In this document: piece by piece, positions 3,001-32,000 of the stretch | Numbering within the stretch: the stretch's first letter is position 1 | How the letters are laid out: each line of letters opens with the position of its first letter | Source of the DNA: Amoebophrya sp. A120 | Lineage: Eukaryota; Protista; Dinoflagellata | Length of the DNA stretch: 33,361 nt | Assembly: GCA_905178155.1 (NCBI GenBank) | Contig: CAJINV010000026.1 | Location: 168,883 to 202,243, forward strand | Direction of reading: 5' to 3' | Notes under the pieces: model-generated | What the model was told of the DNA's origin: nothing | The model's database searches: none | The model's input: the letters and a program-made list of their open reading frames with translations, nothing else | Program-made: the position numbers and the translations under genes

Positions 3001-6000
3001 AACTTTCGTCGTGCAAAGTCGCAGCTTGTAATGCGTGCTACCAATGAGTAGAAAGCGTTTGAAAAATTTGTCATGCTTCACTGCACTTAAAGGCAAACCC
3101 AATCATGACCACTCAGCATTACAAGTTTCCAGACCCAGGCATATTTGCGTTTGATAACCAAACCCCGATCGCGATAAAGGCCGCTTCCCACGCGCCGATT
3201 TTCACAATCGCGATTTCCGCCCGCATATGAATTGCAAAAGTATCGCACTCGTATAAAAAATGCATTACAAATTTTTCCTCAGCATGAGAAATAATGAATT
3301 TGTAATGCTGATTTACCTATACGAAAAAAATTTGTAATGCATGATTGCAATACGAATACGATACTTTTGCACAGGATACCGCAGCCCCCGGTAGTAGCTG
3401 CTGTTTCCGACCAAGACGTGGCGGAATTTCAGCATCATTGACGCGCAGCACCAGATGTAGCAGATCAAAGCGAATAACCGGAGAAAGAGGGTAAGTATCC
3501 TGAGTAAAAACGTCCCCACACCATAGTCAACATGGAAAATCTGCTAGACAAATCAGCCAACTTTGGTTGTTTCGCATGACAAGTTTGTCCCCGTAGTGTA
3601 GTCCTGTTTAGCTAGTTCAGAAGCTGCATCACAGATCTGGCATATGATGCTATTTCTAGCATCACAAATCCCAAAACACGACCAGAAACTGCTTCTCATG
3701 GGTCTCCGCATCATCATCATCATGTAGTGGACACCCGCTCCCAGCGCCACAGGTCAAGGATCCCCTCCCCGGGGGGTGGGCGAGGAAGCACTTTCGGCGA
3801 CCTCAACATACAAAAGCCGAGCGCTACCACGGCAAGTCGCCCCAATAAAAGTACCAACCAGTCGGGAGCTACCCACCACACCTGATCAGCACAGCCCGGC
3901 CAGCTAGCCGAGCCCGACAGCCCAACATACAGAACGATCCAGGACCCGACCCATTTTACGCCATACGTTTTTGTTCTCACGGAAGAGACGACGCACCCCT
4001 TTGGGTTAAGGGGCGAGACTCTCCCTTAAGCCGCAACCCCACCCGGACAGGGGAGGCTGGACCATTTTTTTCAGCATGCAGATTTGCATGACAACTCTGG
4101 GGTGGGGATGTTTTTACACAGGATAGTAAGCGTCCAAAAGTTATCCCCGTTTTTGTTCGGTAGGAAGGGGGCGCACTTGATGAAATTATTGAAGCCGGAA
4201 TTGTACCAAAATTTGCCATCGTTGGTCAAGTTGTCGCAGTATTTGATCGGGTTGTAGTGGGCAAAGCTCGGTGGGATGCCCTGGGTTATCAAGGGAATGT
4301 TCGGTCCGGCCTGGTTTGGCTTCACCTTATCTTCTCCGATCACCACCGTGCCCGACGATCGGACGTACACATCGAAGCTCGCTCTTTGCACCAGCATCTG
4401 CCGCTCGAAGACCCATTCGAAAATGCCTTGATTCCAGTATTGTGACGAATAATCCCCCCCCCGTATCGGACAGCGGACTTGTGATGCTGGATTTGCGTAC
4501 GCATATGCGTTTGTATTGCTAGAAGGGCAAGAGACGCAGCTGTGGCCTTGTTTGCAGGCAATTTGTCATGCTGCTTTCCACTGCCAGTCTCCTCTAGTCA
4601 TGCTGAAGATGCAAGGCCTCTCCACGCCAGCCAGCACTACAGTGTCTACGTCTTTTGCATTCTAGCATGACAAAAGGATTTGCGGTCACAAATCAGCATC
4701 ACAAATTTCCAGTTTGAGTGTGGGGTGGGCAGATTTTTCATTTTGATATCCACCCGATCTCGCATCGCGCCCATAGGTCGAAAATGAAGCAGTATCAAAT
4801 GTAAAGATGTCTGGGTCTGGAAACTTGTGATGCTCTGTGGCGTATCATGAGGAAGCCACAATTGCTGGCTCAGCATGACAAGTTTCTGAGCTCCTAGGTG
4901 TTGCCTATTCTGCATGACAGACTGCGCTTCCGCATCACAGAAAAACGGAGCTCTTGGGTAACGCGCATGACAGATTTAAGAGTCATGCCAGACAAGCATG
5001 ACAGACATGAATTCTTCCAGACCCAGACATTTTTACACTTGATAAGCAGAGAAAGGAAACGACTCCGTTAAACCCGGCTATCCCAGTATGGTGAGCAAAA
5101 ACGTCCCCATCCCAGAGTCAAGATGGGAAATCTGCTACACAAATCGCCCGGCTCTGGCTGTTGCGCATGACAAATTTGGGCTCGCATTGTAGTCGTGCTT
5201 AGCTAGTGCAGCAGCATCACAGATGTAGCATACCATGCGGATTTGAGCATCACAAATATCAGAACACCAATAGAAACTGCTTCTCATGGGTTTCCGCATG
5301 AGAAAGAGAAACATATTCAGCATGCAGATTTGCATTACAACTCTGGGGTGGGGACGTTTTTACAAATGATACCCAGCAGCCCACCCGTGCCACGCGTCGG
5401 AAGTGAGAAAGGAAACGTTGCGGTTTCTTATGGAGGCGTCAGGATCAAAATCGACAAAGTTGAAATAAATAATTTGTGTTGCAAAAAACGGATACCAGTT
5501 GGCGCCCGGTTTTCAAGTGGCGCATGACAAATTGGGGTAGGACCGAGTTTCAGTTTGTCGTGCTGTTTGGGAAAGGAAGACGCTTCTTGTCATGCTACTT
5601 ACTTTATTAGCAGCTATATTTCTACCAGTCCACAGGCTTACAATCTGCCTCACTTGCCTACTCTGCAAGACAGGCACCTTGTGGGTTGCATTCTATGCAT
5701 CACAAGTTTTTCAACTTTCTCAATTTCGGTCCTGACACTCTCATATTTCTCAGGAGTAATTTTACCTCGTCGTCCGTAATGTCGTTCGGTAAATCGTAGG
5801 CCCAGTAATCCTTCCGCTTCTGTCTGGGGATAAACACGGAGAACATCAACCCTCCAACGAGCAAAAACACCCGGAGAATGTCGAAAGTGTATCGGAGAAA
5901 CGTCACAATTGGGTTAAACACTGCCGGCTGGTTCTGGCCGCACGCGTCGTCCTGCGCTGCTTGTCCCGCAGCGGCTCCGGCACCGGTGTCATCCGGCCCG

Positions 6001-14099: not shown

Positions 14100-16400
14100 T
14101 GATGTAGACATTTTCTTGCGATTTGTGGCTGCAGGCCGGGCGGACTCTCGTTTTTATGGAAAATTCACTTTCGAAAGAAAGCAATTCAAACCTACACTTT
14201 ACTTTCAGAAACCGCTCCTGTGAGTTTCCCAACGCAGAAAAGAGCTAGCACTCCATCAAAACGCGAAATAACGCCGCGGGCCGGCGGTATGCTCATTTTC
14301 ATGCTGCGGGTAAAACAGCAAGAAAAGCAAGCACCGCCAAAAGCTCTTTTTTGCTTCCAGGGCGGGATTAGCTGCAAAAGCAAAACCTTGCTGGCTTTCG
14401 CAGACCTTTTCTTGCGATTTCTGGCTGCGGGCCGAGCGGACTCTCGTTTTTATGTAAAATCCATTTTCGCAAAAAAGCAAATCAAACGTATACTTTACTT
14501 TCAGAAACCGCTCCTGCAAGTTCCCCGATGCGGGAAAGAGCTAGCACTCTTCCAAAACCTAAAACAACGCCGCGGGCCGACGGTATGCTCATTTTCATGC
14601 TGCGGGTAAAACAGCACGAGAAGGAAGCACCGCCAAAAGCTTTTTTTTGCTTCCAGGGCGGGATTAGCTGCAAAAGCAAAACCTTGCTGGCTTTCGCAGA
14701 CCTTTTCTTGCGATTTCTGGCTGCGGGCCGAGCGGACTCTCGTTTTTATGTAAAATCCATTTTCGCAAAAAAGCAAATCAAACGTATACTTTACTTTCAG
14801 AAACCGCTCCTGCAAGTTCCCCGATGCGGGAAAGAGCTAGCACTCTTCCAAAACCTAAAACAACGCCGCGGGCCGACGGTATGCTCATTTTCATGCTGCG
14901 GGTAAAACAGCACGAGAAGGAAGCACCGCCAAAAGCTTTTTTTTGCTTCCAGGGCGGGATTAGCTGCAAAAGCAAAACCTTGCTGGCTTTCGCAGACCTT
15001 TTCTTGCGATTTCTGGCTGCGGGCCGAGCGGACTCTCGTTTTTATGTAAAATCCATTTTCGCAAAAAAGCAAATCAAACGTATACTTTACTTTCAGAAAC
15101 CGCTCCTGCAAGTTCCCCGATGCGGGAAAGAGCTAGCACTCTTCCAAAACCTAAAACAACGCCGCGGGCCGACGGTATGCTCATTTTCATGCTGCGGGTA
15201 AAACAGCACGAGAAGGAAGCACCGCCAAAAGCTTTTTTTTGCTTCCAGGGCGGGATTAGCTGCAAAAGCAAAACCTTGCTGGCTTTCGCAGACCTTTTCT
15301 TGCGATTTCTGGCTGCGGGCCGAGCGGACTCTCGTTTTTATGTAAAATCCATTTTCGCAAAAAAGCAAATCAAACGTATACTTTACTTTCAGAAACCGCT
15401 CCTGCAAGTTCCCCGATGCGGGAAAGAGCTAGCACTCTTCCAAAACCTAAAACAACGCCGCGGGCCGACGGTATGCTCATTTTCATGCTGCGGGTAAAAC
15501 AGCACGAGAAGGAAGCACCGCCAAAAGCTTTTTTTTGCTTCCAGGGCGGGATTAGCTGCAAAAGCAAAACCTTGCTGGCTTTCGCAGACCTTTTCTTGCG
15601 ATTTCTGGCTGCGGGCCGAGCGGACTCTCGTTTTTATGTAAAATCCATTTTCGCAAAAAAGCAAATCAAACGTATACTTTACTTTCAGAAACCGCTCCTG
15701 CAAGTTCCCCGATGCGGGAAAGAGCTAGCACTCTTCCAAAACCTAAAACAACGCCGCGGGCCGACGGTATGCTCATTTTCATGCTGCGGGTAAAACAGCA
15801 CGAGAAGGAAGCACCGCCAAAAGCTTTTTTTTGCTTCCAGGGCGGGATTAGCTGCAAAAGCAAAACCTTGCTGGCTTTCGCAGACCTTTTCTTGCGATTT
15901 CTGGCTGCGGGCCGAGCGGACTCTCGTTTTTATGTAAAATCCATTTTCGCAAAAAAGCAAATCAAACGTATACTTTACTTTCAGAAACCGCTCCTGCAAG
16001 TTCCCCGATGCGGGAAAGAGCTAGCACTCTTCCAAAACCTAAAACAACGCCGCGGGCCGACGGTATGCTCATTTTCATGCTGCGGGTAAAACAGCACGAG
16101 AAGGAAGCACCGCCAAAAGCTTTTTTTTGCTTCCAGGGCGGGATTAGCTGCAAAAGCAAAACCTTGCTGGCTTTCGCAGACCTTTTCTTGCGATTTCTGG
16201 CTGCGGGCCGAGCGGACTCTCGTTTTCATACAAAATTCACTTTCGCAAAAAAGCAACTCAAGCGCACACTTTACTTTCAGAAGCCGCTCCTGTGAGTTCC
16301 CCGATGCGGGAAAGAGCTAGCACTCTTCCAAAACCTAAAACAACGCCGCGGGCCGATGGTATGCTCATTTTCATGCTGCGGCAAAAACAGCAGAAAAAAG
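14100..16400. repeat. 296-bp tandem satellite, subfamily 1 (about 8 units)
   Basis: Identical ORFs recur every 296 bp (14528, 14824, 15120, 15416, 15712, 16008); degenerate outer edge. Confidence 0.97.
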
Positions 16401-18800
16401 AGACACCGCCAGAAGTTTTTTTTGGCTAGCAGGGGGGGACAATAGCTGCGGGAGCAAAAGCTGCCTGGCTTCTGCAGGGATTTTTTTGCGATTTGTGATC
16501 CGCGGACGAGCTAACTCCTGTTTTTGTGCAAAATCTGCTTTCAAAGAAATCCCGGCGAAAGCGCCAGCGCATCTCTAGAAACAGCTCCTATTTGTCATCC
16601 GAAAGATACAGGAGCTACAACACCTGAAAAACCTAAAACGACACCCGCGGACGGTGGCATGCTCATTTTCCTGGTGTGGGTAAACCACCGGGAAAATAAA
16701 AGCAACATCCGCAGGAAGTCTTTTTTGCTAACAGGGGGGGAATCGCTCTGGGAAGAAAAGCTGCCTGTCTTCTGCAGGGCTTTTTTTGCGATTTGTGATC
16801 CGCGGACGAGCTAACTCCTGTTTTTGTGCAAAATCTGCTTTCAAAGAATGCCCTGCAAAAGCAACATCGTACCTCTAGAAACAGCTCCTATTTGTCACCC
16901 GAAAGACACAGGAGCAACAACACCCGAAAAACCTAAAACGACACCCGCGGACGGTGGCATGCTCATTTTCCTGGTGTGGGTAAACCACCAGGAAAAAGCA
17001 ACATCCGCAGGAAGTCTTTTTTGCTAACAGGGGGGGAATCGCTCTGGGAAGAAAAGCTGCCTGTCTTCTGCAGGGCTTTTTTTGCGATTTGTGATCCGCG
17101 GACGAGCTAACTCCTGTTTTTGTGCAAAATCTGCTTTCAAAGAATGCCCGGCAAAAGCAACATCGTACCTCTAGAAACAGCTCCTATTTGTCACCCGAAA
17201 GACACAGGAGCAACAACACCTGAAAAACCTAAAACGACACCCGCGGACGGTGGCATGCTCATTTTCCTGGTGTGGGTAAACCACCAGGAAAAAGCAACAT
17301 CCGCAGGAAGTCTTTTTTGCTAACAGGGGGGGAATCGCTCTGGGAAGAAAAGCTGCCTGTCTTCTGCAGGGCTTTTTTTGCGATTTGTGATCCGCGGACG
17401 AGCTAACTCCTGTTTTTGTGCAAAATCTGCTTTCAAAGAATGCCCGGCAAAAGCAACATCGTACCTCTAGAAACAGCTCCTATTTGTCACCCGAAAGACA
17501 CAGGAGCAACAACACCTGAAAAACCTAAAACGACACCCGCGGACGGTGGCATGCTCATTTTCCTGGTGTGGGTAAACCACCAGGAAAAAGCAACATCCGC
17601 AGGAAGTCTTTTTTGCTAACAGGGGGGGAATCGCTCTGGGAAGAAAAGCTGCCTGTCTTCTGCAGGGCTTTTTTTGCGATTTGTGATCCGCGGACGAGCT
17701 AACTCCTGTTTTTGTGCAAAATCTGCTTTCAAAGAATGCCCGGCAAAAGCAACATCGTACCTCTAGAAACAGCTCCTATTTGTCACCCGAAAGACACAGG
17801 AGCAACAACACCTGAAAAACCTAAAACGACACCCGCGGACGGTGGCATGCTCATTTTCCTGGTGTGGGTAAACCACCAGGAAAAAGCAACATCCGCAGGA
17901 AGTCTTTTTTGCTAACAGGGGGGGAATCGCTCTGGGAAGAAAAGCTGCCTGTCTTCTGCAGGGCTTTTTCTGCGATTTGTGATCCGCGGACGAGCTAACT
18001 CCTGTTTTTGTGCAAAATTTGCTTTCAAAGAATGCCTGGCAAAAGCAACATCGTATCTCTAGAAACAGCTCGTATTTGTTACACGTAAGACGCAGGAGCT
18101 ACAACACCTGAAAAACCTAAAACGACACCCGCGGACGTTGGCATGCTCATTTTCCTGGTGTGGGTAAACCACCAGACAAAAGCAACATCCACAGGAAGTC
18201 TTTTTTGCTAGCAGGGGGGCAGCCGCTCTGAAAAGAAAAGCTGCCTGTGTTCTGCAGGGCTTTTTTTGCGATTTGTGATCCGCGGACGAGCTAACTCCTG
18301 TTTTGGTGCAAAATCTGCTTTCAAAGAAATCCCGGCGAAACCGCCAGCGCATCTCTAGAAACAGCTCCTATTTGTCACCCGTAAGATACAGGAGCTGCAA
18401 CACCTGAAAAACCTAAAACGACACCCGCGGACGGTGGCATGCTCATTTTCCTGGTGTGGGTAAACCTCCATGAAAAAGCAACACCCACAGGAAATCTTTT
18501 TTGCTAGCAGGGGGGAGCCGCTCTGGAGAGAAAAGCTGCCTGTCTTCTGCAGGGCTTTTTTTGCGATTTGTGATCCGCGGACGAGCTAACTCCTGTTTTT
18601 GTGCAAAATCTGCTTTCAGAAAAAGACCGCTGAATGCTACACCCAACCTCTACAAACCGCTCCTGTGCGGCACCAACGACATAAAGGAACTGGGAGAATC
18701 CACAACCGCAAACGACACCCGCGGACGACCTACAGCTCATTTTCCTGACGTGGGTAAAGCAGCAAGAGAAAGAAGCAACCAGAGAAGCTTTTTTCTGCTC
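16400..18800. repeat. 296-bp tandem satellite, subfamily 2 (about 8 units)
   Basis: 296-bp period (16824, 17120, 17416, 17712); shares AAAACCTAAAAC, ATGCTCATTTTC and TTGCGATTT in register with subfamily 1. Confidence 0.97.
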
Positions 18801-19327: not shown

Positions 19328-20093
19328 CAGAACACAGAAATTGATGTATACGAAAAAAACAACACAGGACATGATGAAAACGAATGTACATACTGAATGA
19401 CTGCCCTCTTCTGGTAAGTATAATACTCTACTTGATACTACGGCTCTGGTTCCTCCAGGAAAAAGAAATAAAGTAGTACGATTTGTGAGAATGAAATGTG
19501 GCGGAAACAGCCGATATAACTTATGGAATTTGATTTCGACAAAGAAAAGGAAAACAATAACAAATGAATGCTGTACTTGAGAAAAAGAAAAAACCTGCTG
19601 TATTCCACCAAAACGTCACTGTGTTCTGCAAGCGGAAGCTGCAGTTCCGACCGTATTTAAGTTTATCAAAAGGTCACAGCTGCTCAAATGTGCTCCGGCT
19701 CCTGCGGCGCGTCATGCTCCGGCTCTTCCGACGCGTAGGTCTCCAGGTCATAAGACGGGTCCTGCATCTTTTGCAGCCTCCGCCCGCCATTGTCCGCTGA
19801 CCGAGAGGACTTCTGACGCCCCGCCCGATAGCTGCGGGTACCCGCGGGCACCTTGGCCGCGTCGTAGCTGTGTTGATGTTATATTTTTTTTTGTCATGCA
19901 ACAAAACCAGTATAATATTAAGAGACAGGACTTTGTCATGCTCGAAGAACTACGAGTACGACATAATTTTTACACGTATATAATCAGCCGATTGCTATAA
20001 TACCTGTCCTCGTACCCCCCAGCGTAATACCCGGTTTGCACGTCGTCCAACGCCTGCGGCTTGCGCTTCTTGCGGGAAGCCTCGCCCAGAGAG
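19328..20093 (-). pseudogene. 5'-truncated paralogous copy of the 3' end and 3' flank of the CTL-like gene, lacking three introners
   Basis: Colinear with about 22745-24488. It encodes LGEASRKKRKPQALDDVQTGYYAGGYEDS-YDAAKVPAGTRSYRAGRQKSSRSADNGGRRLQKMQDPSYDLETYASEEPEHDAPQEPEHI* (stop 19684-19686) with a GT-AG intron at 19868-20003. Confidence 0.85.
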
Positions 20094-21251
20094 TATGGCG
20101 ATGGCAGAAACTTTTTGCTTCAAAACTTTTTTTTTTTTGGGCATGCAATTCACCCATCATGAGAACTAGACACCTGCTGGGCGGTGAATATTCCGCGCAT
20201 GAACAGGACGGCATTTCGTGTAGGCTGAGCTAGCTAGTCTAAATGCAGGGACAGGGTCGGCCTGCCTATCGGCTGCGTCACGGATTCGTCCTGAGCGCTT
20301 TGACCTCCAGATGCGTGACAGGTAAGTCCCCCGCCGCGGCCTTGGCGTGTCGAGAAGTAGTTCATGATATGGCAGCGCAATTCTGACTGTTCGCACAAGG
20401 GCGGCAGTCTCAAACGAGCATGGCCACGGGACCTGGCGCCCTATAGCTTCCAAAATACTCTGTGAGCCACTGATAGTGTAGGCGCACAGAGCCAATAAAG
20501 TCGCCCGCTTTATTCCGGGCCCGACTGTGTAACACCCGTCCTTGCCGGGTTCGCGTGATCATTTTTCCTGACATTGCTTTTGAAAAGCTGCAAACTTGCG
20601 GAAGAAAAAAGGGGGCTCGGCCCCCCCCTTGAGGGGGGGGTTTGGGGGACCCCCCTTCGTGGAGATACTAAGGGGGAGCACCCTTCTGCGAAGACCCAAA
20701 AGGGGGGGGGGGTTTGGGGAAGGGCCTGGGGGTACCCCTTGAGGGTTTTTGCTTGCTTCCGAAGACGCAAGATTCTTTTGCTCTTTGTAAAACAACCAGG
20801 GCTGAAAAGCGCTGGCCCGAGCCCAAGACCCGAAGTCGTGGCGTATCCGCGGCGCCTATGTCATTGGGGCCGTCGCGCTTAGCTTTGAATTGTTTGACAA
20901 CCGGACGTGGCCACCTGTTTTGCCTACCGGGGCAAGGGCCAGCTGTTTGCCACGAGCCGCGGCACAGACGGCCTCGGCTTGGCTGCGTAATTCTTTTATC
21001 CGACCAGCGCCATTCCATACTGTGTCTGTCCGGCTCCTGCGCCTGCCGTCACGGACCGGACCCGGGACGCAACCGGCGGCAAGGTCCGTCCTGTTCCTGC
21101 ATGCAGACCAGCAAATTTGACATGGGCATAAAGCCGCAGCGCGCACGCGTGAGATAGTCGCAGCTGAGACGATATCTACTTTTCGCGCTGGGTGATGCGC
21201 ATGGCGAAAAAAAAAAAAGTTTTGCAGGAAAAAGTTTCTGCCACTGCCATA
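20094..21251. mobile_element. 1.16-kb non-autonomous TAT...ATA TIR element (family G)
   Basis: TATGGCGATGGCAGAAACTTTTTGCTTCAAAACTTTTTTTTTTTT pairs with AAAAAAAAAAAAGTTTTGCAGGAAAAAGTTTCTGCCACTGCCATA; no 5-bp TSD and no transposase ORF recognised. Confidence 0.8.
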
Positions 21252-21872
21252 ACCCCCCAGCGTAGTACCCAGTTTGCACGTCGTCCAACGCCTGCGGCTT
21301 GCGCTTCTTGCGGGAAGCCTCGTCCAGAAATTCCCAAGTCTGAAAGGCCTGGTCCGCCAGTATGGCCAGCCTTCTTGCAGCCTGTTCCGGGGATCGCACA
21401 CACCTGCCCAGCATTTGCACAACCCGCACGGCAGCCCGGGAGAGATCACTGTCCGGGAGGTTGCGGCCGGTTACGGAAGAAAGGTCCATCCACGGGACCT
21501 GGCACAGGACGACGGCGGCGAGGTTTTCCGGGGGGTTCCATCCGTTCTTCACTGTTAATACACTGCAGGCAGCATATCGCGTTCTCAACTCCAGACGTAC
21601 GGCATATCGCGTTCTCAACTGTTAATACACTCTCAACCTGTGGTCTGCGGTAGCGGTCATCCGCGCCAACTTCGATCCCGGCGGAGACCCAAGGGACCGC
21701 TTGCATGGCCAATCAATGTCTGAAAAACCCTGGCCGAACGAAAAGAAGAGAGCGGCTTGCTCGCGGGAACTTTCGCTTCAGCGTCATATTTGAGGCGTGT
21801 GTGTGTGAGTGTGTGCGCAGCTGCGGCATCTCGCTGCTCAAGATTGCGCAGCGACAAGCTCTATATGCAAAC

Positions 21873-21957
21873 TCTCTCTCTCTTCTTTTCTCCTTTTTTC
21901 TCTCTTTTTCTTTTTCTCTCTTTTTCTCTTTTTTTCTCTTTTTCTCTCTTTTTTTTT
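21873..21957. repeat. Polypyrimidine (C/T) tract
   Basis: About 85 nt of only C and T. Confidence 0.9.
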
Positions 21958-22041
21958 AGTGTGTTCTATTTTTCCTATAGCTCCTTCTTGCCGAGCCAGA
22001 TCCAGAACGCCGAAATTGATGTGTACGAAAAAAACAACACA

Positions 22042-22745
22042 TTTCGTCCAGATCCTATGCATTGCAAATACCGATCCGGGTCTGGAAGGATGGAACTTGT
22101 CATGGTACCTTTGGATTCGTTTTAAAATGTGTATTACTGCAGATATGTCTGGCTCTGGAAAAGTCGGGGCTTGTCATGCACATTTTGCATGAGCCCTCAG
22201 GTCTGTGATGCTGGTGCTAGCATCACAAATTTTCTGAGAGCTTCTTCATGCTAATTACGCATGACAAATGCCCTCTCCACGTGCCACGAGCTGACTCCTC
22301 TTGCTGCTCATGCAACACAGATATTTTTAGAATCCGCAGACACCATTACAAGTTCCACTCATCCAGACCCAGACATTTTTGCATTTGATAGACGTCCTCC
22401 CCCGACAAAAGAACTCGGGGATTTTTTACGCATTGGTGATTGCTCATATCGCACGAAAAAACTGTTTCACTGTGAACTTGTGATGCATAAAATGGAACAC
22501 AGACGCATTTGTCTTACTACACATGCAAGACAATGGATTTCTAGCTGTGTTTTCCCTTAGGATCCCCGCATGACAGATTTTCAGTGTCATGCGTGTCAAA
22601 CTTGTGATGCAGATTTCGCACAACCACCACAGTGAGCCAGTTTTTTCGTGGGATAGCTCATGTCAAGAGTGTGGTCCCAATAGCACCAATCGCACCCGAT
22701 GCCGTTCGAAAGGACAGCAGAATAATAGTTACAGCGATACGCGCC
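22042..22745 (-). pseudogene. Mosaic of unspliced CTL-gene fragments
   Basis: 22042-22135 is identical to 26181-26274; 22136-22390 is the body of a family A element; 22391-22745 is a diverged copy of 30065-30419. Confidence 0.85.
22447..22655. mobile_element. TIR element, family F (duplicated with its flanks from the 30121-30329 site)
   Basis: Family F TIRs; TSD GCTCA. Confidence 0.9.
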
Positions 22746-23098
22746 AGAACGCCGAAATCGATGTGTACGAAAAAAACAACACAGGGCATGATGAAAACGA
22801 ATGTACATACTGAATGACTGCCCTCTTCTTGTAAGTATTACTTATTACTACGACTCTGGTTCGTTCCTCTTCGTTTGAAGAAAAATACGGTTTGTGAGGA
22901 TGAAATGTGGCCGCGGAAACATACGGTTTGTGAATTTATGGAATTGCGATAAATAAAAGGAAAACGAATAACAAATGAATGCTGCAATTGAGAAAAAGAA
23001 AACTAAACCTGTACATAATCCATCAAAACGTCCGCATGTTCTGCAAGCGGAAGTTGTAGTTCATCCAACCGTGACGTTGATCAAAAGGTCACAGCCGC

Positions 23099-26000
23099 TC
23101 AAATGTGCTCCGGCTCCTGCGGCGCGTCATGCTCCGGCTCTTCCGCCGCGTAGGTCTCCAGGTCGTAAGTATCAACTGCAAAAGTGTCGGGGTCTGGGAG
23201 AGTCGGGGCTTGTCATGCACATTTGCATGACCCGTGAGGTCTGTGATGCTGGTGCTAGCATCACAGATTTTTTGAGAGCTTCTTGATGCTAGTTACGCAT
23301 GAGAAATGCCCTCTCCGCGTGCCAAGAACTGACTCCTCTTGCTGCACATGCAACACAGATCTTTTTAGAATCCGCAGACAGCAGTACAAGTTCCACTCTT
23401 CCAGACCCAGACATGTTCCCCCTGCATAATAAGACGCGTCCTGCATCTTTTTCAGCCTCCGCCCGGCATTGTCGGCTGACCGAGAGGACTTCTGTATCAA
23501 CTGTAAAAATGTCTGGGTCTGGAAGAATGTGAACTTGTCATGCAGGTTTTCTATGACCCTTGAGGTGTGGAATGCGGGACCTAGCATGACAGAGGCTGTG
23601 AGGTCTCTTTCATGCCTATTCTGCATGAGAAACTGCCTTTAAACTTGTTCAAAAGTGGACCTCTTTTGGTAATCATGCAACACAGATTTTTGCATGATTC
23701 GGATTTAGCATGACAAGTTGCAATCTTCCAGACCCAGACATTTTTGCAATCCATATTCTGCCGCCCCGCCCGATAGCTGCGGGTACCCGCGGGTACCTTG
23801 GCAGCGTCGTAGCTGTGTTGATGTTTTTTGTTTATCACGCATGACCAGTATCTTAAGCTTAACAGACGGAATTTCGATTTTCTCATGCTCGAACGACATA
23901 TTTGTACATCATGTCAGATTGTTGACATTGACTGTAGCGGACTCCTATATATACCTGTTCTCGTACCCCCCAGCGTAGTACCCGGTTTGCACGTCATCCA
24001 ACGCCTGCGGCTATCAAATGCAAATATGTCTGGTGTTTTGTCTGGAAACAAGACCTTGATACAGCACGGGGAAGAGAACGACTTCAACTTTTTGAAGAAA
24101 CAAAAGTAAAAGAGAACTACGCTGATGCACTATGTAGAGAGAGACTAAAAGCATGCTATGATGTCCACCGGTGGAACTAACTACTGCTACTTATACTGTC
24201 ATGTCTGGGTCTGGAAGAATGCAATATGTCATGCAGATTTTCCATGACCCATGAGGTCTGAAATGCGGGGCCTAGTATGACAAAGTCTGCCAGGTCTCTG
24301 TCATGCCTATCCTGCATGAGAAATCCCCTCCCAACTTGGTCGAAAGTGGACAGCTTTTGGCACTGATGCAACACAGATTTTGGCATGATTCAGATTGAGC
24401 ATCACAACTTACTGTGGTCTTCCAGACCCAGACATATTTGCAATGCATAGCGGCTTGCGCTTCTTGCGGGAAGCCTCGTCCAGAGAGGTTATAACCCGCT
24501 CAGGTGTTACAATCTCAAACGTTACAATAGAATCTGGAATTTGTGTTGCAAGAAGTGCATGACCTACCCTACTCCCACAGGATTGCGCATGACAAGTTCT
24601 GGAGTCCCAATCCGCACTACAATCTGGCGAAATTTGTATTGCAAATAGTGGAACGCTGTCCGAGTCTGTCATGTTGGTCATGCAAGACAAATCTCAGATT
24701 CTATTGTAACGTTTGAGATTGTAACACCTGAGCAGGTTATAGAGGTGCGTCCGCGTTTCTGAGATCCAGATCTGTTTCCACGACCTTGCGCGTCGTAGGA
24801 AGATGAACCGTAGCCTGCGTAGTGGTCGTCGGCGTAAGATGAACCGTGGTTATAATTCCAATCGTCGTCATGCCAGTCGTCATCCCCTCCACCAACTTCA
24901 ATCTCCGCCATTTCAATTGCCTCCCCTTCCGCGTCGTGAAATTTGTGGTCTGGCGACGCCGTTGTAGAAGAATTATTTGTCGGGTCAGCAAATGTTGATC
25001 CCATCGGCTTCGGCAGGTTGTTTTTCATGTTTTCGTTCGCAGCTTTCATGTCGTAGGACACCAAGTCATTGGTCGTCATGATGCCCTCCCCGGTGGCGCC
25101 CGGGGCGTCCGCGGGCCCGAGGATATCGAATGCAAATATGTCTGGGTCTGGAAACTTGTGATGCTAAAATGTGCATGATGAAAGCACTTCCTCATGCAGG
25201 AAAGCATGACAAGCTTGCAGAACGCTTTCTCGTACGAACTCCGCATGAGAAACTGCGTTTCTGTCTGACATGAGACGAGGCTGCCACTTTATTTGTTGGT
25301 CATCATGCAATACAGATTTCACAGGAATGTAAGAACAGCATTACAAGTTCCAACTTTCCAGACCCAGACATATTTGCAATGCATAGAGGAGACCCTTGAC
25401 GGATTTGCGCTGGTCTCGTCCCGCCTCCTTGCCCTCGGACCGGAGAAGGGCGTCGTATCGTGTGTAAAAACCACAGGGCCCAGGAGCACACCAGAGTAAT
25501 CTTCAAGATAGGACGTTTGCTACATAAATCAGCAGGCTTTGGCTGTTGCGCATAACAAGTTCTTTGGGTACACTCTGGTGTAGTTGTAGTGGTCGTGTTT
25601 GGCTAGTACATTAAAGCCGCATCACAAAATAGAATCTAGCTGCTCCCTATCCTGATTAGAGCAGGACAAAGTTCTTGTACCAAGCAGCATGGGAAAGTGC
25701 TGCTCATGAAATTGCGTGCATGAGAAACATTTTAGGCATGCAGATTTGCATGACATCTAACTCTGGGCAGGTCGTGTGGGCCCCGGTTTTTCCTCAGGAT
25801 ACGTGGCAGTACAAAATCGCGTTGGTACTGTAAACGATCAGCATCTGCACAAACTGGAAGATGACGGCACAGGCACAGCCGACAAAGATTCCGGTAATAT
25901 CAAATGCAGAAATGTCTGGGTCTGGAAACTTGTGATGGTGCAAGTCAGTGATCAATAAGTGAACTGTAATGCGCAGCCGAGCATGACAAGTTTTTTTCGT

Positions 26001-29000
26001 GCTTCTGTGCCGCCAATTCCGCATGAGAAACTGCGTTTTTGCATGACACGCGAGAGAGGCTGTTCGTGGCCACGCAATACAGATTGCAGAGTCATGCCAG
26101 ACTAGCATGTCAAATCTGGCAATCTTCCAGACCCAGACATATTTGCCTTTGATATGTAAACAAACCGTGCAAAACGTTGTTTTCGTCCAGATCCTATGCA
26201 TTGCAAATACCGATCCGGGTCTGGAAGGATGGAACTTGTCATGGTACCTTTGGATTCGTTTTAAAATGTGTATTGCATGAACAGCAAAAGACATCCAGTT
26301 TTTTGCTACGCGGAGAGGGCATTTCTCGTGCGGTATGGGCATCAGAAAGTCCTCGCAGAGTCTGTGATGCTACGGCTTGCATCACAGACATCATCGGGCA
26401 GGCAAAATCTGCATAACAAACTCCAGCAAGCTTCCAGACCCAGACGTATTTGCATTTGATAAATCCTTGATGGCATTCCAGTCGGCGATATCAAATGTAA
26501 AAATGTCTGGGTCTGGAAGATTGCAACTTGTGATGCTGTCTCTACATTCTAAAAAAATCTGTATTGCATGAGTAGCAAACGGAATGCAATTTTTGCTACG
26601 CTGAGAAGACATTTGTCATGCGGAATAGGCATCAAGAAGCCCTCAAAAAATCTGTATTGCTAGGGTATGCATCACAGACATCATGGCTCATGCAAAACGT
26701 GCATGACAAGTGTCAGAATCTTCCAGACCCAGACATTTTTACATTTGATACGCGATCAGGATGAGCAGGATCAAGCCGAAGATGGGCCCAAAGCCGAGGC
26801 CGATCACGAACATTATCGCAAGAAAAAACTGTTTCACTGTGAACTTGTGATGCAGAAAATGGAGCACAAAACTATTTGTCTTGCTACACCTGCATAGAGC
26901 ATTGGAGTTTCAACCGTGTTTTCCCTTTTGGAATCGCGCATGGCAAATTTTCTGTGTCATGTGTATACAAACTTGTGATGCGGTTCTTGCAAAATCATCA
27001 CAGTGGAACAGTTTTTTCTTGCGATAAACATCCACATAAGGATGATGAGAACGAAGAGAACAAACACGCTCACGTCAAAATTGTCGTTTCCGAAGACGCC
27101 CTGTTCGATTTGGTTATCCATGTAGACCCAAGCCATCATGCCCTATCAAACGCAAAAATGTCTGGGTCTGGAAGATTGCGAGATTTGTCATGCTTGTCTG
27201 GCATGACCAAAAAGTTTGTGATGCGTGTCCAAGGAGGGACCCTTTTGCCTGTCATGCTTGTCATGCGAAAAACGCAACACAAAGAAGCGCAGATATTTAT
27301 CATGCTTGCCTGTGCATTACAGAGCATTCACTGTTCCCAACGCAGCATTACAAGTTTCCAGACCCAGACATATTTGCAATCCATATGCCCATGCCGGTCG
27401 CAACCAGCACCCGGTGCACCGTAAAAGTGGACGTCAGTGCGTAGTCCTGCACGGCTAAACCCAGCACGCCCTGGTTGCTATCGTCCTGAAACAGGTTAAA
27501 CACTTTCATCGCCGTGGCGCAAATCGGGCCGGAGTGAATCGTATGAACTGCAAAAGTATCGTACTCGCATAAATGCATTACAGATTTCCTCAGCATGAGA
27601 AAAAAGATTTGTAATGCGGGTTTACCTTGACAAAAAGATTTGTAATGCATGATTGCAATACGAGTACTATACTTTTGCACAGGATAAATCGTGTGACCGA
27701 CGACCAAGTACTTGGTGAAGGGTTCGACGAGACACTTGATTCCCATCCAGAGCTATCAAATGTAAAAGTGTCTGGGTCTGGAAGGTTGGAAGACTTGTCA
27801 TGCAGGTTTTCCATGACGCTTGAGGTCTGTAATACATGACCCAGCATGACAGCTTCTTCTCGACCTCTATCATGCCTCGTCTGCATGAGAAAGTCCCTCT
27901 CAGCTTGGTCAAAAGAGGAGAGCTTTTGGTAATCATGCAACACAGATTCTTGCACTATCGAGAATTAGCATGACAGGTTGCATTCTTCCAGACCCAGACA
28001 TTTTTACAATCCATAAGAGCGCGAAGCACAACAAGTCCGTGCAGCAAAACCCGAAATTCCAACAACAGCAAAGAATCGGGTTTGCGGCCACGTTCTCCGC
28101 CCGCCGGCGGATCTCGTACGTCAACGAAACAATGATGGACGCGAACATGTTAACCCCGGCAGAGGTCGTGTACGCCATGGAAAACCCGACGGCTCCGGGG
28201 TTGCGAATCGCCGGTGTGTTTCCGTACAGCTTTGCTGCGGTTCCCGAGTGGAAGGTCCAGTTGGCGACGCCGGTTGTGCAAATGATGAGAATCACCTGGC
28301 GCAGAAAGATTACCAGCGGAAAGAAGACGAGCCAGAGCATGGTCTGACAGAAAACACTCGCGCTCGTTGTCTTCAGCTCACACAGGCTGGCGCTGTTGTT
28401 TGTGGGGTTCGCGTGCCGAATAAGCGTTCCAGTATACCGCCACTCCACCCAATTTCCGGACTCGATGAACCCAACGAGCCAAAAGGCGAGAAAACCGCCG
28501 AAAACCAAAAACTGCAGCATGGAAAACAATATCACGTCTTTGGCTTTGTTCAGACACGACATGGCCTTGCTCGCACTGTCGGCCGCTTCGGAGACTTGCT
28601 TGAAGTAAAGAATGGTCACCACGGTGACTACCACAGCGGGAATCATATCAAATGCAAATATCGATCTGGGTCTGAAAGATTGCAGGAGTTTGTCATGTAT
28701 CTACTTCTGGATCACGCAACTGGTCCCTCGTGCTGCACGCAAAAGCATCACAGGATTTGCGCACGCCTCCTGATGTCTATCCCACATGAGAAATCCCCTA
28801 TTTGCGTAGCAAGAAATGGGAAGCTTTTGGTGCTTCTGCAATACAGATTTTTGTCTAGTCCAGACTTAGCATGACAAGTTCCAATTCTTCCAAACCCAGA
28901 CAGATTTCCAACTGATAAATCAGCAGGTACCATAAATGTTTCGGGTCGACGCAGAATAGCGCAATCATGGCGATCACACCCAGGGCGATGGTGCCAAAAA

Positions 29001-32000
29001 TCATCACCTTCGGGGCGTAGTAAAGCGCCAACAGCCACAAAACCAGCAGCCAGGTGAAGGCGAGAAAAGAGATCAGCGGCACCTCCCACTGCTCCGCCAT
29101 CGTTTCCCACACCGTCTTCCGATCGTCGCTCGCGCTCAGTTATCCTGTGCAAAAGTATCGCACTCGTAGTAATCGCAATTATGCATTACAAATCGTTTTC
29201 CTAAGGTCAATCAGCATGAGAAATTTCATTTGTAATGTTTCGCAAATTTGTAATGCGAGTTCTACTAGTACGATACTTTTGCACCGCATATCAGCCGCCG
29301 CCGCAAGTGCCGCGCTTCTTGCAGCAGCCGCTTCGCCTGCAGCCGTTTTTGCAAGTGCCGCTCTTCCAGTTCCGCCCGCTGTTGTAGTTCTTCCTCCCCG
29401 TACGAACTAGGCAGGAACTTGAAATCTTCATGGCTTTCGAGTTCGTGCTATGCATTGCAAATATGTCTGGGAGGTCTGGAATAAACTTGTAATGCTGAGT
29501 TGCGTAGCATGAGGAGGCCAAGAATGATGGCCCAGAATGACAAGTTTCCGAGCTTCTAGGTGTAGTTGCCTACACTGCATGACAAACTGCGTTTCAGCAT
29601 CACAGAAAAATCGGCCTTTTGAGTAATCGGTGCATGACAGACTTGAGAGTCTTGCTAGCCGAGCGAGACAAATTTCGCATTCTTCCAGGAGACCGCCCAG
29701 ATCCATATTTGCAGTTGATACGTGCACTTGTTGCAGTAATTGGCGGATTCTCAAATGGCCTGCATCTCCGCGCTCCTGCAAATCGTCTTCCTCACCACCA
29801 GGAGCGACGTTATGCGTTGCAAATATGTCTGGGTCTGGAAACTTGTGATGCTAATTTATGAATTGCGGGGACACGGCAATAGGCAGCCACGCATGACAAG
29901 TTTCTGGGCTCCTATGTGTTTCGCTTTCCGCATGACAAACTACATTTTTGCATGACAGGCAAGAGGGTCTTTTGCTGCTCACGCATTACAGGTTCAAGAA
30001 TCATGTGAGACAAGCATGACAAACATCTGCATTCTTCCAGACCCAGACACTTTTGCATTTGATAGACGTCCTCCCCCGACAAAAGAACTCGGGGATTTTT
30101 TACGCATTGGTAATTGCTCATATCGCACGAAAAAACTGTTTCACTGTGAACTTGTGATGCATAAAATGAAACACAGAAGCATTTGTCTTGCTACACATGC
30201 AAGACAACGGATTTCTAGCTGTGTTTTCCCTTAGGATTCCCGTATGACAGATTTTCAGTGTCATGCGTAACAAACTTGTGATGCAGATTTCGCACAACCA
30301 CCACAGTGAACCAGTTTTTTCGTGGGATAGCTCATGTCGAGAGTGTAGTCCCACTGGCACCAATCGCACCCAATGCCGTTCGAAAGGACAGCAGCATAAT
30401 AATTACAGCGGTACGCGCCCATCGCACCTCCCCCGGGGCAGATGCAACCCGTCGACGGTGCTATGACAGTGCACAACTCCTCCTCCCCCTCATTTGTCGT
30501 GCGAAATCCCAACTCCAGTCGCTGCATTGTGGCACTGTGTGCATGACAAAAAATTCCGGAGGGGGCCAAAAAGTACTACATGATCAGGCACTACGTAGAT
30601 TTGTCCATGCATAGGCTCCACATGTGGTGCGCGGGTGTTTGTATTGCTGTTCATGTCATACATAGAAGTGGGAGGGGGAGTTGTGCCCTCTCATAGGTGC
30701 GACCGTGCTTGTAGAAGTCGAGGCTGAATCGGGAACGCATTGCATCGTAAGGAAAAATCCCCCCGCCCCATATCGAAAAGGAAATTTGTGATGCTGATTT
30801 GTGGCCACTGCGTACACAGCAAACGGCACTCCTGCGGCGCATTGTAAGTACAGCGAGTCTGTCACGCGTTTTCGCATATGCCAGACTTGCTTCTCATGCT
30901 CAGTTGCTAGCCGGATGCGTACCCGAGTGGGCGTAGAACATGCCGCCACGCTCTTGCTGCAATAGATGAAAGCTCCTTTGTGTACACAAATCCAGCAACA
31001 CAAATTGTCTTTTGAATATGGGGTAGGGGCTTTTTTCACGTTGATACATTGGTAAAGGTTAGGTGAGTTACTGCGTGTGTAGCCGATATTACAGCCTCCA
31101 CACCCGACTCCGTTCGTCAGCGTGCCGTAGACACTTCTGCACTATCAAATGCAAAAATGTCTGGGTCTGGAAGAATGCAACTTGTGATGCTGCATTAGCA
31201 TTTGGATGTCTAAAACTAAAATTAAAAGAATTGTGTTGCATGAGCAGCAAAAGGAGTCTAATTTTTGCTACGCGGTAGTAGTAGTAGTCACCATTTGACT
31301 CCTGGCGGGTCGGCGTTAGAACAGATTTAGCCTCTGCGAATACAGCCTGGGCGTTAGAACAGATTTAGCCTCTGCCAATACCACCTGGGCGCTAGAACAG
31401 GTTTAGCCTCTGCCAATGCCCCTAGGTGGATATCCGATCCACTTCCTAACTACCACCCGGCCGCAACCGCAATACCGCTATCGATTGCTTACGCGTATCT
31501 ACGGCCAGTGGGCGTGACGTGTGGCAGACCCATCTTACCATCCAAGCCCGCAAGCAAGGCGGAGCTTCGGAGTAGCCTTGAAGGGTTGGTCTTACAAACT
31601 TGTTCGCAATCATACTTCTGTGTACGCGCAGAGGGCATTTGTCATGCGGGATAGGCATCAAGAATCCCTGAAAAAAATTGTGACGCTAGGGCATGCATCA
31701 CAGACATCATGGCTTATGCAAACCGCGCATGACAAGTCTCAGAATCTTCCAGACCCAGATCGATTTTTGCATTTGATAGGCACACACTGCTAGTGAGCGG
31801 AGTTCCATTCGGACAGGTGCAGATACCATAACCGGGACTGCTAACGCATTGCATCGTGGCCTGACTCACTGCGTAGTTGGGATCGCAGTAGTCGCACCCG
31901 ATGCCGTTTGTCAGCGAGCCCATGCTGGTGTACATGCCGCAAAATGAGTTATCCTGAGTAAAAACGGGGCCCGCACACCAGAGTCAAGATGGGATGAAAT

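Follow-up and report, generated by a model that had tools for sequence, protein, structure and literature searches.

The closest described relatives of the sequences treated here are the introner elements (IEs) of the dinoflagellate Amoebophrya sp. A120, reported by Farhat et al. in 2021 (PMC7789003). In the parts of that paper drawn on here, these IEs start with TAT in inverted repeats, carry direct repeats of 3–5 nt (5 bp in Fig. S19), have non-canonical borders, fall into repeated families, and measure ~240–260 nt. In the same parts, their borders are called unknown, four-base repeats are the commonest ones found upstream of the 5′ end in A120, the gene models were built from BLAT transcript alignments, and no transposase is given for A120; in the part of PMC12130899 drawn on, introners with terminal inverted repeats (TIRs) and an open reading frame (ORF) are described there. 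We analyzed a 33,361-nt stretch of the A120 genome (assembly GCA_905178155.1, contig CAJINV010000026.1, positions 168,883–202,243 of the forward strand; hereafter the window), in which a choline-transporter-like gene is filled with elements sharing those features of the A120 IEs, while a second copy of its 3′ end is free of them. Published work already covers the elements, their 5-bp repeats, and the inference that they were inserted, and the comparison of the two copies at three sites is a confirmation. What the locus adds is direct filled-versus-empty evidence, together with a rate of gain per lineage.

We consider it probable, taking the locus as a whole, that the two copies arose at the DNA level, that introners were inserted later, and that the introner-free copy belongs to a chimeric paralog, with a splice register set by the elements themselves. 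Thus, the 3′ end of the choline-transporter-like gene would have been duplicated as DNA; introners of the miniature inverted-repeat transposable element (MITE) type, running from TAT to ATA and each making a 5-bp target duplication, would then have entered the full-length copy; and the introner-free copy would have stayed at the ancestral position to become the tail of a transcribed chimeric gene.

Results

Two Copies and Three Empty Sites

Below, L001 denotes a metagenome-contig locus of a related lineage, X1 a DNA sequencing run, and X3 and X4 runs that a program guess assigned to RNA, of which X3 holds spliced joints of the full gene. Elements are named by their first position in the window. 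The features of the two copies are as follows.

19328–20093, minus strand: copy 1, the 3′ untranslated region (UTR), last two coding exons, and GT-AG intron of a choline-transporter-like gene, free of introners
19750–19754: empty site 1 (ATAAG), equal to the intronic flank of element 23170 and not carrying the G kept in copy 2 mRNA
19811–19815: empty site 2 (TTCTG), empty in L001 too
19868–20003, minus strand: GT-AG intron of copy 1, 136 nt
20056–20060: empty site 3 (GCGGC), empty in L001 and in a third copy too
22745–24489, minus strand: copy 2, the 3′ end of the full choline-transporter-like gene, which extends to the right past 32758 (P0001, 1,199 amino acids, PF04515)
23170–23428: introner 1, 259 bp, flanks GTAAG/ATAAG; same site and same mismatch in L001
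23495–23755: introner 2, 261 bp, flanks TTCTG; absent from L001
23813–23954, minus strand: GT-AG intron of copy 2, 142 nt, common to L001
24012–24449: introner 3, 438 bp, flanks GCGGC, with an internal insert; absent from L001
24490–24741: introner 4, of another family, 252 bp, flanks GAGGT, outside the three-site region; absent from L001, spliced in X3

The interrupted gene matched PF04515 at 37.6 bits (cut-off 26.9), and its tested exon was 100% identical to database protein P0001. Within the window it comprises 25 exons and 1,007 codons, nearly all split by TAT...ATA elements with 5-bp flanking repeats, so densely that three elements per 267 coding bases is ordinary for it [expected 1.9, P(≥3) = 0.31]. 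An earlier note on this DNA had placed single ATAAG, TTCTG, and GCGGC sequences in copy 1 exactly where the gene has elements 23170, 23495, and 24012 between two flank copies. When each element was taken out together with one flank, the two copies aligned colinearly, with the three single 5-mers at just these sites. The paired flanks were identical (5/5) at 23495 and 24012, but those of 23170 agree at only 4/5 bases. The GT-AG intron was indeed retained, and was found in both copies.

All three elements start on the left with TAT, seven bases, and then three or more A. They belong to a repeated family, with nearest in-window relatives at 9%, 15%, and 15% distance, values that are upper bounds on element age only. 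Introner 3 exceeds the family length by ~175 bp, and its insert adjoins the left terminal repeat. Spliced contigs in X3 and in a further RNA run, X6, showed introners to be missing from mRNA at non-GT-AG borders. Two long elements elsewhere in the window (3496–4125 and 31143–31778; 630–636 bp) have normal ends and seemingly contain captured or nested sequence. As for the GT-AG intron, its borders are introner-like (GTAT start, GCTGT/CCTGT flanks on the plus strand, A at −7), and it weakly resembles a 150-bp element family, with shuffles reaching the score in 1/200 cases for copy 1, 0/200 for copy 2, and 9/200 for L001. A clock based on flank mismatches, of which 39 hand-curated elements had 7 in 195 bases, was not used because of bias: some elements had been picked by matching flank and several omitted.

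Copy 1 was well represented among DNA contigs. Exact contigs from X1 covered 19383–19711, 19682–19848, and 19819–20063 at depth 36–48, compared with 41–46 for unique parts of the interrupted gene; the second of these runs across both site 1 and site 2, and the third, which covers site 3, stops 3 bases beyond it. X1 may be the source data of the window assembly, and this support consists of contigs, not long reads. A chimera or a collapsed allele at copy 1 is unlikely: the earlier note had named an assembly chimera as the refuting outcome, and at this scale the contigs, at single-copy depth, held none. We likewise rejected an allelic-haplotype artefact, because copies 1 and 2 both show the depth of unique sequence. 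Between the copies, 7/62 synonymous and 6/205 non-synonymous sites differ (Fisher p = 0.014), and this excess of synonymous change points to some constraint on copy 1. Non-coding divergence was 13% in the UTR and 25% in the intron; the latter was dropped as a date, since few block events were left once adjacent differences had been merged.

Gain of Introners Relative to a Related Lineage

L001 was found by a single scan of metagenomes with a 26-mer common to both window copies, which returned one locus and is weak evidence for a single copy in the L001 assembly. The locus holds one intact gene copy that directly adjoins the flank found to the left of copy 1 in the window; there, copy 1 itself runs unbroken into 690 bp of this ancestral downstream flank. 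Copy 1 therefore stands at the ancestral position. Synonymous sites differ between window and L001 at 63/507 (0.124).

Introner content differed between the two lineages. When window elements were tested against L001, 4/15 were shared and 11/15 were empty there; in the opposite direction, 4/13 L001 elements were shared and 9/13 were empty in the window. At 18/20 lineage-specific sites the empty state keeps a single exact copy of the flank 5-mer, the other two being diverged sites, which extends the case for insertion with a 5-bp duplication well beyond the three sites on which the earlier note had based it. The rate of gain corresponds to ~10 introners per 2.2 kb of coding sequence per lineage over a synonymous distance of 0.12. 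One shared element, 28646–28917 in the window and 5411–5688 in L001, was 17% different, compared with 1.5–6% for the other shared elements, a pattern that suggests conversion from another family member.

The earlier note had proposed a survey of relatives, and L001 turned out to be empty at sites 2 and 3 and filled at site 1. Elements 23495 and 24012, being absent from L001, are therefore recent gains on the window's lineage, and copy 1 never had them. Two or more new elements within 267 nt are not exceptional at such a frequency of gains [P(≥2) = 0.34]. That 23495 and 24012 were inserted into the full-length copy after the copies had separated is well supported.

These comparisons separate three histories that had been offered side by side, namely later insertion, precise loss, and copying from an RNA. 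The last, in which copy 1 would be a retrocopy of an RNA freed of its introners before its GT-AG intron, would account for a copy that lacks the three elements yet keeps the canonical intron, and retroposition is known from dinoflagellates, according to the portion of a review considered here. We nevertheless reject it as highly improbable, because copy 1 sits at the ancestral position, continuous with 690 bp of ancestral flank, rather than at a new site, and because elements 2 and 3 are missing from L001 and need not have been removed at all. Moreover, copy 1 has A at 19750 where the mRNA contig has G, and in Euglena, the closest analogue that has been studied, nonconventional introns leave after the spliceosomal ones, as stated in the part of PMC6221363 used here. 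Later insertion thus holds for 23495 and 24012, and precise loss comes into consideration at site 1 only.

History of Site 1

Element 23170 is also present in L001, with the same flank mismatch and 4/259 differences, and is therefore older than the split between the window and L001 lineages. It was probably also inserted after the two copies had separated. The base at site 1 is A in copy 1 (19750) and G in copy 2 mRNA, and since G would remain after either a cDNA-mediated loss or a deletion between the four bases in common, the empty state appears ancestral. In addition, L001 had the fewest private non-coding changes in 9/9 alignment settings (one-sided p 0.01–0.25 in six merged settings), which counts against copies younger than the split, as duplication after the split predicts that L001 should have the most.

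Several observations pull the other way. The synonymous divergence between copies 1 and 2 is 0.113 [confidence interval (CI) 0.05–0.22], no greater than the 0.124 between window and L001, and these near-equal values do not fix the order of duplication and split. Under an old duplication, the duplicate must have been lost from L001 or collapsed in it, or else copy 1 must derive from an empty allele. Finally, in 3/4 flank mismatches at position 1 that could be polarised, the intronic copy is the one that changed; by that pattern, G would be the ancestral base at site 1, and the A of copy 1 would have arisen later.

The alternative is that 23170 was already in place when the copies arose and later dropped out of copy 1 precisely, either through gene conversion with a short cDNA or through exact excision of DNA, sites 2 and 3 being later gains. 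Such a history fits the place of 23170 as the 3′-most intron, and it fits a single-copy L001 that carries 23170 with the same mismatch while copy 1 occupies the ancestral position. Copy 1, copy 2, and L001 are about equally distant from one another at synonymous sites, one informative site pairs L001 with the third copy and sets both apart from copies 1 and 2, and copy 1 shows another TAC-to-TAT change, so that a back change at site 1 is conceivable. However, both routes of loss predict G at 19750 where copy 1 has A, the paucity of private non-coding changes in L001 is the opposite of what duplication after the split would give, and the account requires a loss plus a substitution. We therefore regard precise loss as unlikely, and later insertion as the considerably better supported history of site 1; this weighting is a judgement, not a computed value.

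A Chimeric Paralog and a 1,158-bp Element without Direct Repeats

The earlier note had let the duplicated copy end at 20093. Instead, copy 1 is the 3′ part of a transcribed chimeric gene that runs on through a long element.

20094–21251: 1,158-bp TAT...ATA element with 77-nt TIRs (82%) and flanks GAGAG/ACCCC, leaving the RNA together with 20090–20093 and 21252
21252–21328, minus strand: third copy of a 77-bp exon piece, with an empty GCGGC site and 2–3 differences from the other two copies
21329–21892, minus strand: transcribed 5′ exon of the chimeric paralog, unlike the transporter, with weak likeness to Helicase_C_2 (PF13307)

The borders of the 1,158-bp element lack a direct repeat altogether (GAGAG versus ACCCC, 0/5), and it is nonetheless removed like an IE. 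It starts with TAT but without the A run at the family's usual place, and its ends recur with other flanks in X1. Its flanks match sequence of the gene itself at two positions separated by 80 bp; the element would stem from recombination between two insertions or from aberrant transposition. The exon upstream matched Helicase_C_2 in Pfam below the cut-off (E = 0.023), with 30/30 Atlas matches, the best at 0.93. Its parent gene was sought and not found; two candidate relatives, P0004 and P0005, were rejected as plectin-repeat and integrase proteins with weak repetitive matches.

Both X3 and X4 gave exact contigs over the copy 1 UTR and the 5′ exon and left most of the 1,158-bp element uncovered. 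A 96-base contig of X6 (depth 9) joins 20089 to 21253, skipping 1,163 bases, i.e., 1,158 + 5, with zero positional ambiguity. Both halves of this joint are unique to the locus, no such joint occurred in the DNA run X1, and the joint is in frame, giving a 168-codon ORF equal in length to database protein P0003. At 97% likeness, X3, X4, and X6 yielded no copy-1-specific contig over the GT-AG intron, these contigs being of a kind that drops variants.

Some data sit less easily with splicing at this position. No X3 or X4 contig spanned the 20089/21253 joint, which is documented by one contig in one run; an unspliced X3 contig (20055–20420, depth 4.4) exists; the gap in the P0003 model is also 1,163 bases but shifted by 27; and the unmatched flanks pair with each other (G-C, G-U) in the predicted pre-mRNA fold, so that the 1,158-bp element may be a special case. 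The joint could then be an artefact of reverse transcription or assembly at a strong hairpin, in a paralog that is not properly spliced; a single contig, the 77-nt inverted repeat, the unspliced contig, and the disagreement with the database model all speak for such an origin. Yet the joint shows no microhomology, the skip is exactly the element plus five bases, the frame is kept, the register lies within the range allowed by three other junctions, and a gap of just this length is present in the database model, which is based on transcripts. An artefact accordingly strikes us as improbable, though less so than the retrocopy.

Splice Register and Mechanism of Removal

Where flank repeats are identical, the cut position is ambiguous, and mismatched repeats narrow it. 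X3 mRNA keeps the first base of the left flank at 23170 and 25898 and the fourth base of the right flank at 25456, so that only cuts 2–4 bases into the upstream repeat are compatible with all three; the X6 joint says 4. Read on the coding strand, that joint puts the first cut one base ahead of the 5′ TAT and the second four bases beyond the 3′ ATA. The predominance in A120 of four-base repeats upstream of the 5′ end, as given in the cited portion of PMC7789003, fits this register. The element ends, rather than the direct repeat, probably determine this register.

When the register was applied to 32 elements, 0/32 introns had GT..AG, their first and last four bases were free, and T-A at +2/+3 and A at −7 were present in all, as follows from the element ends. 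The GT-AG intron of the interrupted gene likewise starts with GTAT and has A at −7. Position counts over the 32 introns did not show CAG at +4 to +6 pairing with CTG at −8 to −6. Pairing of the terminal 20 bases was 11/20 in 23170, 16/20 in 23495, 17/20 in 24012, and 18/20 in 20094.

We lean towards a fixed register read from the element ends alone, without GT, AG, or direct repeat, such that joined ends make introns and stitch chimeric genes together, and the only GT-AG intron of the gene may have begun as an introner that became canonical with age. A relaxed spliceosome, which we prefer, would recognize T-A-T at donor positions +2 to +4 and leave +1 free, and would set the acceptor by distance from the A at −7 without an AG. 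With the same history of the sites, removal might instead fall to a non-spliceosomal, hairpin-guided nuclease and ligase measuring from the terminal-repeat stem, as proposed for euglenids. That 0/32 introns are GT..AG while the first and last four bases vary freely agrees with this, as do the paired ends of the 1,158-nt pre-mRNA in its predicted fold and the failure to detect U1 snRNA in these genomes reported in the cited portion of PMC7789003. In the same portion, however, U2, U4, U6, and the majority of the spliceosomal proteins are recorded. The introners are cut asymmetrically, 1 base outside one end and 4 bases outside the other; as in the GT-AG intron, T-A is left at +2/+3 and A at −7; and 23170 is spliced although it pairs at only 11/20 terminal bases. 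A nuclease and ligase thus seem to us a possible but less favored machinery.

Flank mismatches were seen at seven elements (23170, 25898, 26195, 26489, 31143, 25456, and 29141), 5/7 of them at the first base on the plus strand, and four of the changes polarised by L001 sit beside the element end; this clustering suggests integration errors or a splicing constraint. Speaking against a strictly fixed register, 6/7 of the mismatches are synonymous in either version, from which the cut may sometimes slide. The raw-read RNA runs X10 and X11 gave matches to element fragments only and none to the gene.

Local Duplications around the Locus

A further composite of DNA-level duplicates precedes the UTR of copy 2.

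21991–22744: mosaic of DNA duplicates before the copy 2 UTR, bounded by a 40-bp direct duplication

Its pieces are a 100% copy of 26181–26274, a 95% copy of 30030–30419, and an element 90% like 23170. The younger DNA duplicate at 22356–22745, 5.4% from 30030–30419, brought its introner along. Similar short local duplications lie at 440–562/611–733 and 8036–8088/8904–8956. An X3 contig of depth 755 matches 26166–26409 (exon plus element) exactly and then continues into sequence outside the window, and another expressed locus seems to carry an exact copy of this segment. Adjoining the copy 1 flank, a tandem array (14106–18772) has a 296-bp unit in two homogenised subtypes ~63% alike, and the start of L001 aligns to the last part of this array.

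Discussion

Together, these results indicate that the three empty sites of copy 1 are mostly explained by ordinary later insertion. Beyond their history, the locus offers a natural experiment on where the non-canonical introns, which number in the tens of thousands, are cut in an organism without a detected U1 snRNA, and by what cue. The repeat-less 1,158-bp element makes the splicing question directly testable, and mismatched repeats combined with RNA data make it so genome-wide. A fixed register, if true, would correct gene models, and it predicts a lariat branch at −7. It would also mean that any rearrangement uniting two element ends in suitable phase makes a working intron, as in the helicase-like exon fused in frame to the transporter tail.

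A literature search that left aside figures, subscription papers, and bioRxiv supplements returned no orthologous empty sites, fixed register, or spliced repeat-less IE for Amoebophrya. Compared with the A120 IEs in the portion of PMC7789003 considered here, the window adds filled and empty orthologous sites and an element without direct repeat that is spliced at a defined register. The MITE introners of Aureococcus, Polarella, and Symbiodinium, as presented in the parts of 10.1101/2020.10.14.339549 and PMC12130899 used for comparison, are alike in being non-autonomous TIR elements whose insertion makes an intron and duplicates the target site; one of the two target copies is then spliced out along with the intron. 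They differ in that, in the same part of 10.1101/2020.10.14.339549, their donors, which start with G, and their AG acceptors are supplied by the element or by the target duplication, whereas the window elements have no fixed terminal dinucleotide. The nonconventional introns of euglenids, in the parts of PMC11282704 and PMC6221363 consulted, share with the window non-canonical borders, fixed asymmetric terminal pairing, and frequent junction repeats. Their motifs, however, are CAG at +4 to +6 and CTG at −8 to −6 (same part of PMC11282704), whereas the introners of the window, in an unrelated lineage, have TAT at +2 to +4 and ATA at −7 to −5.

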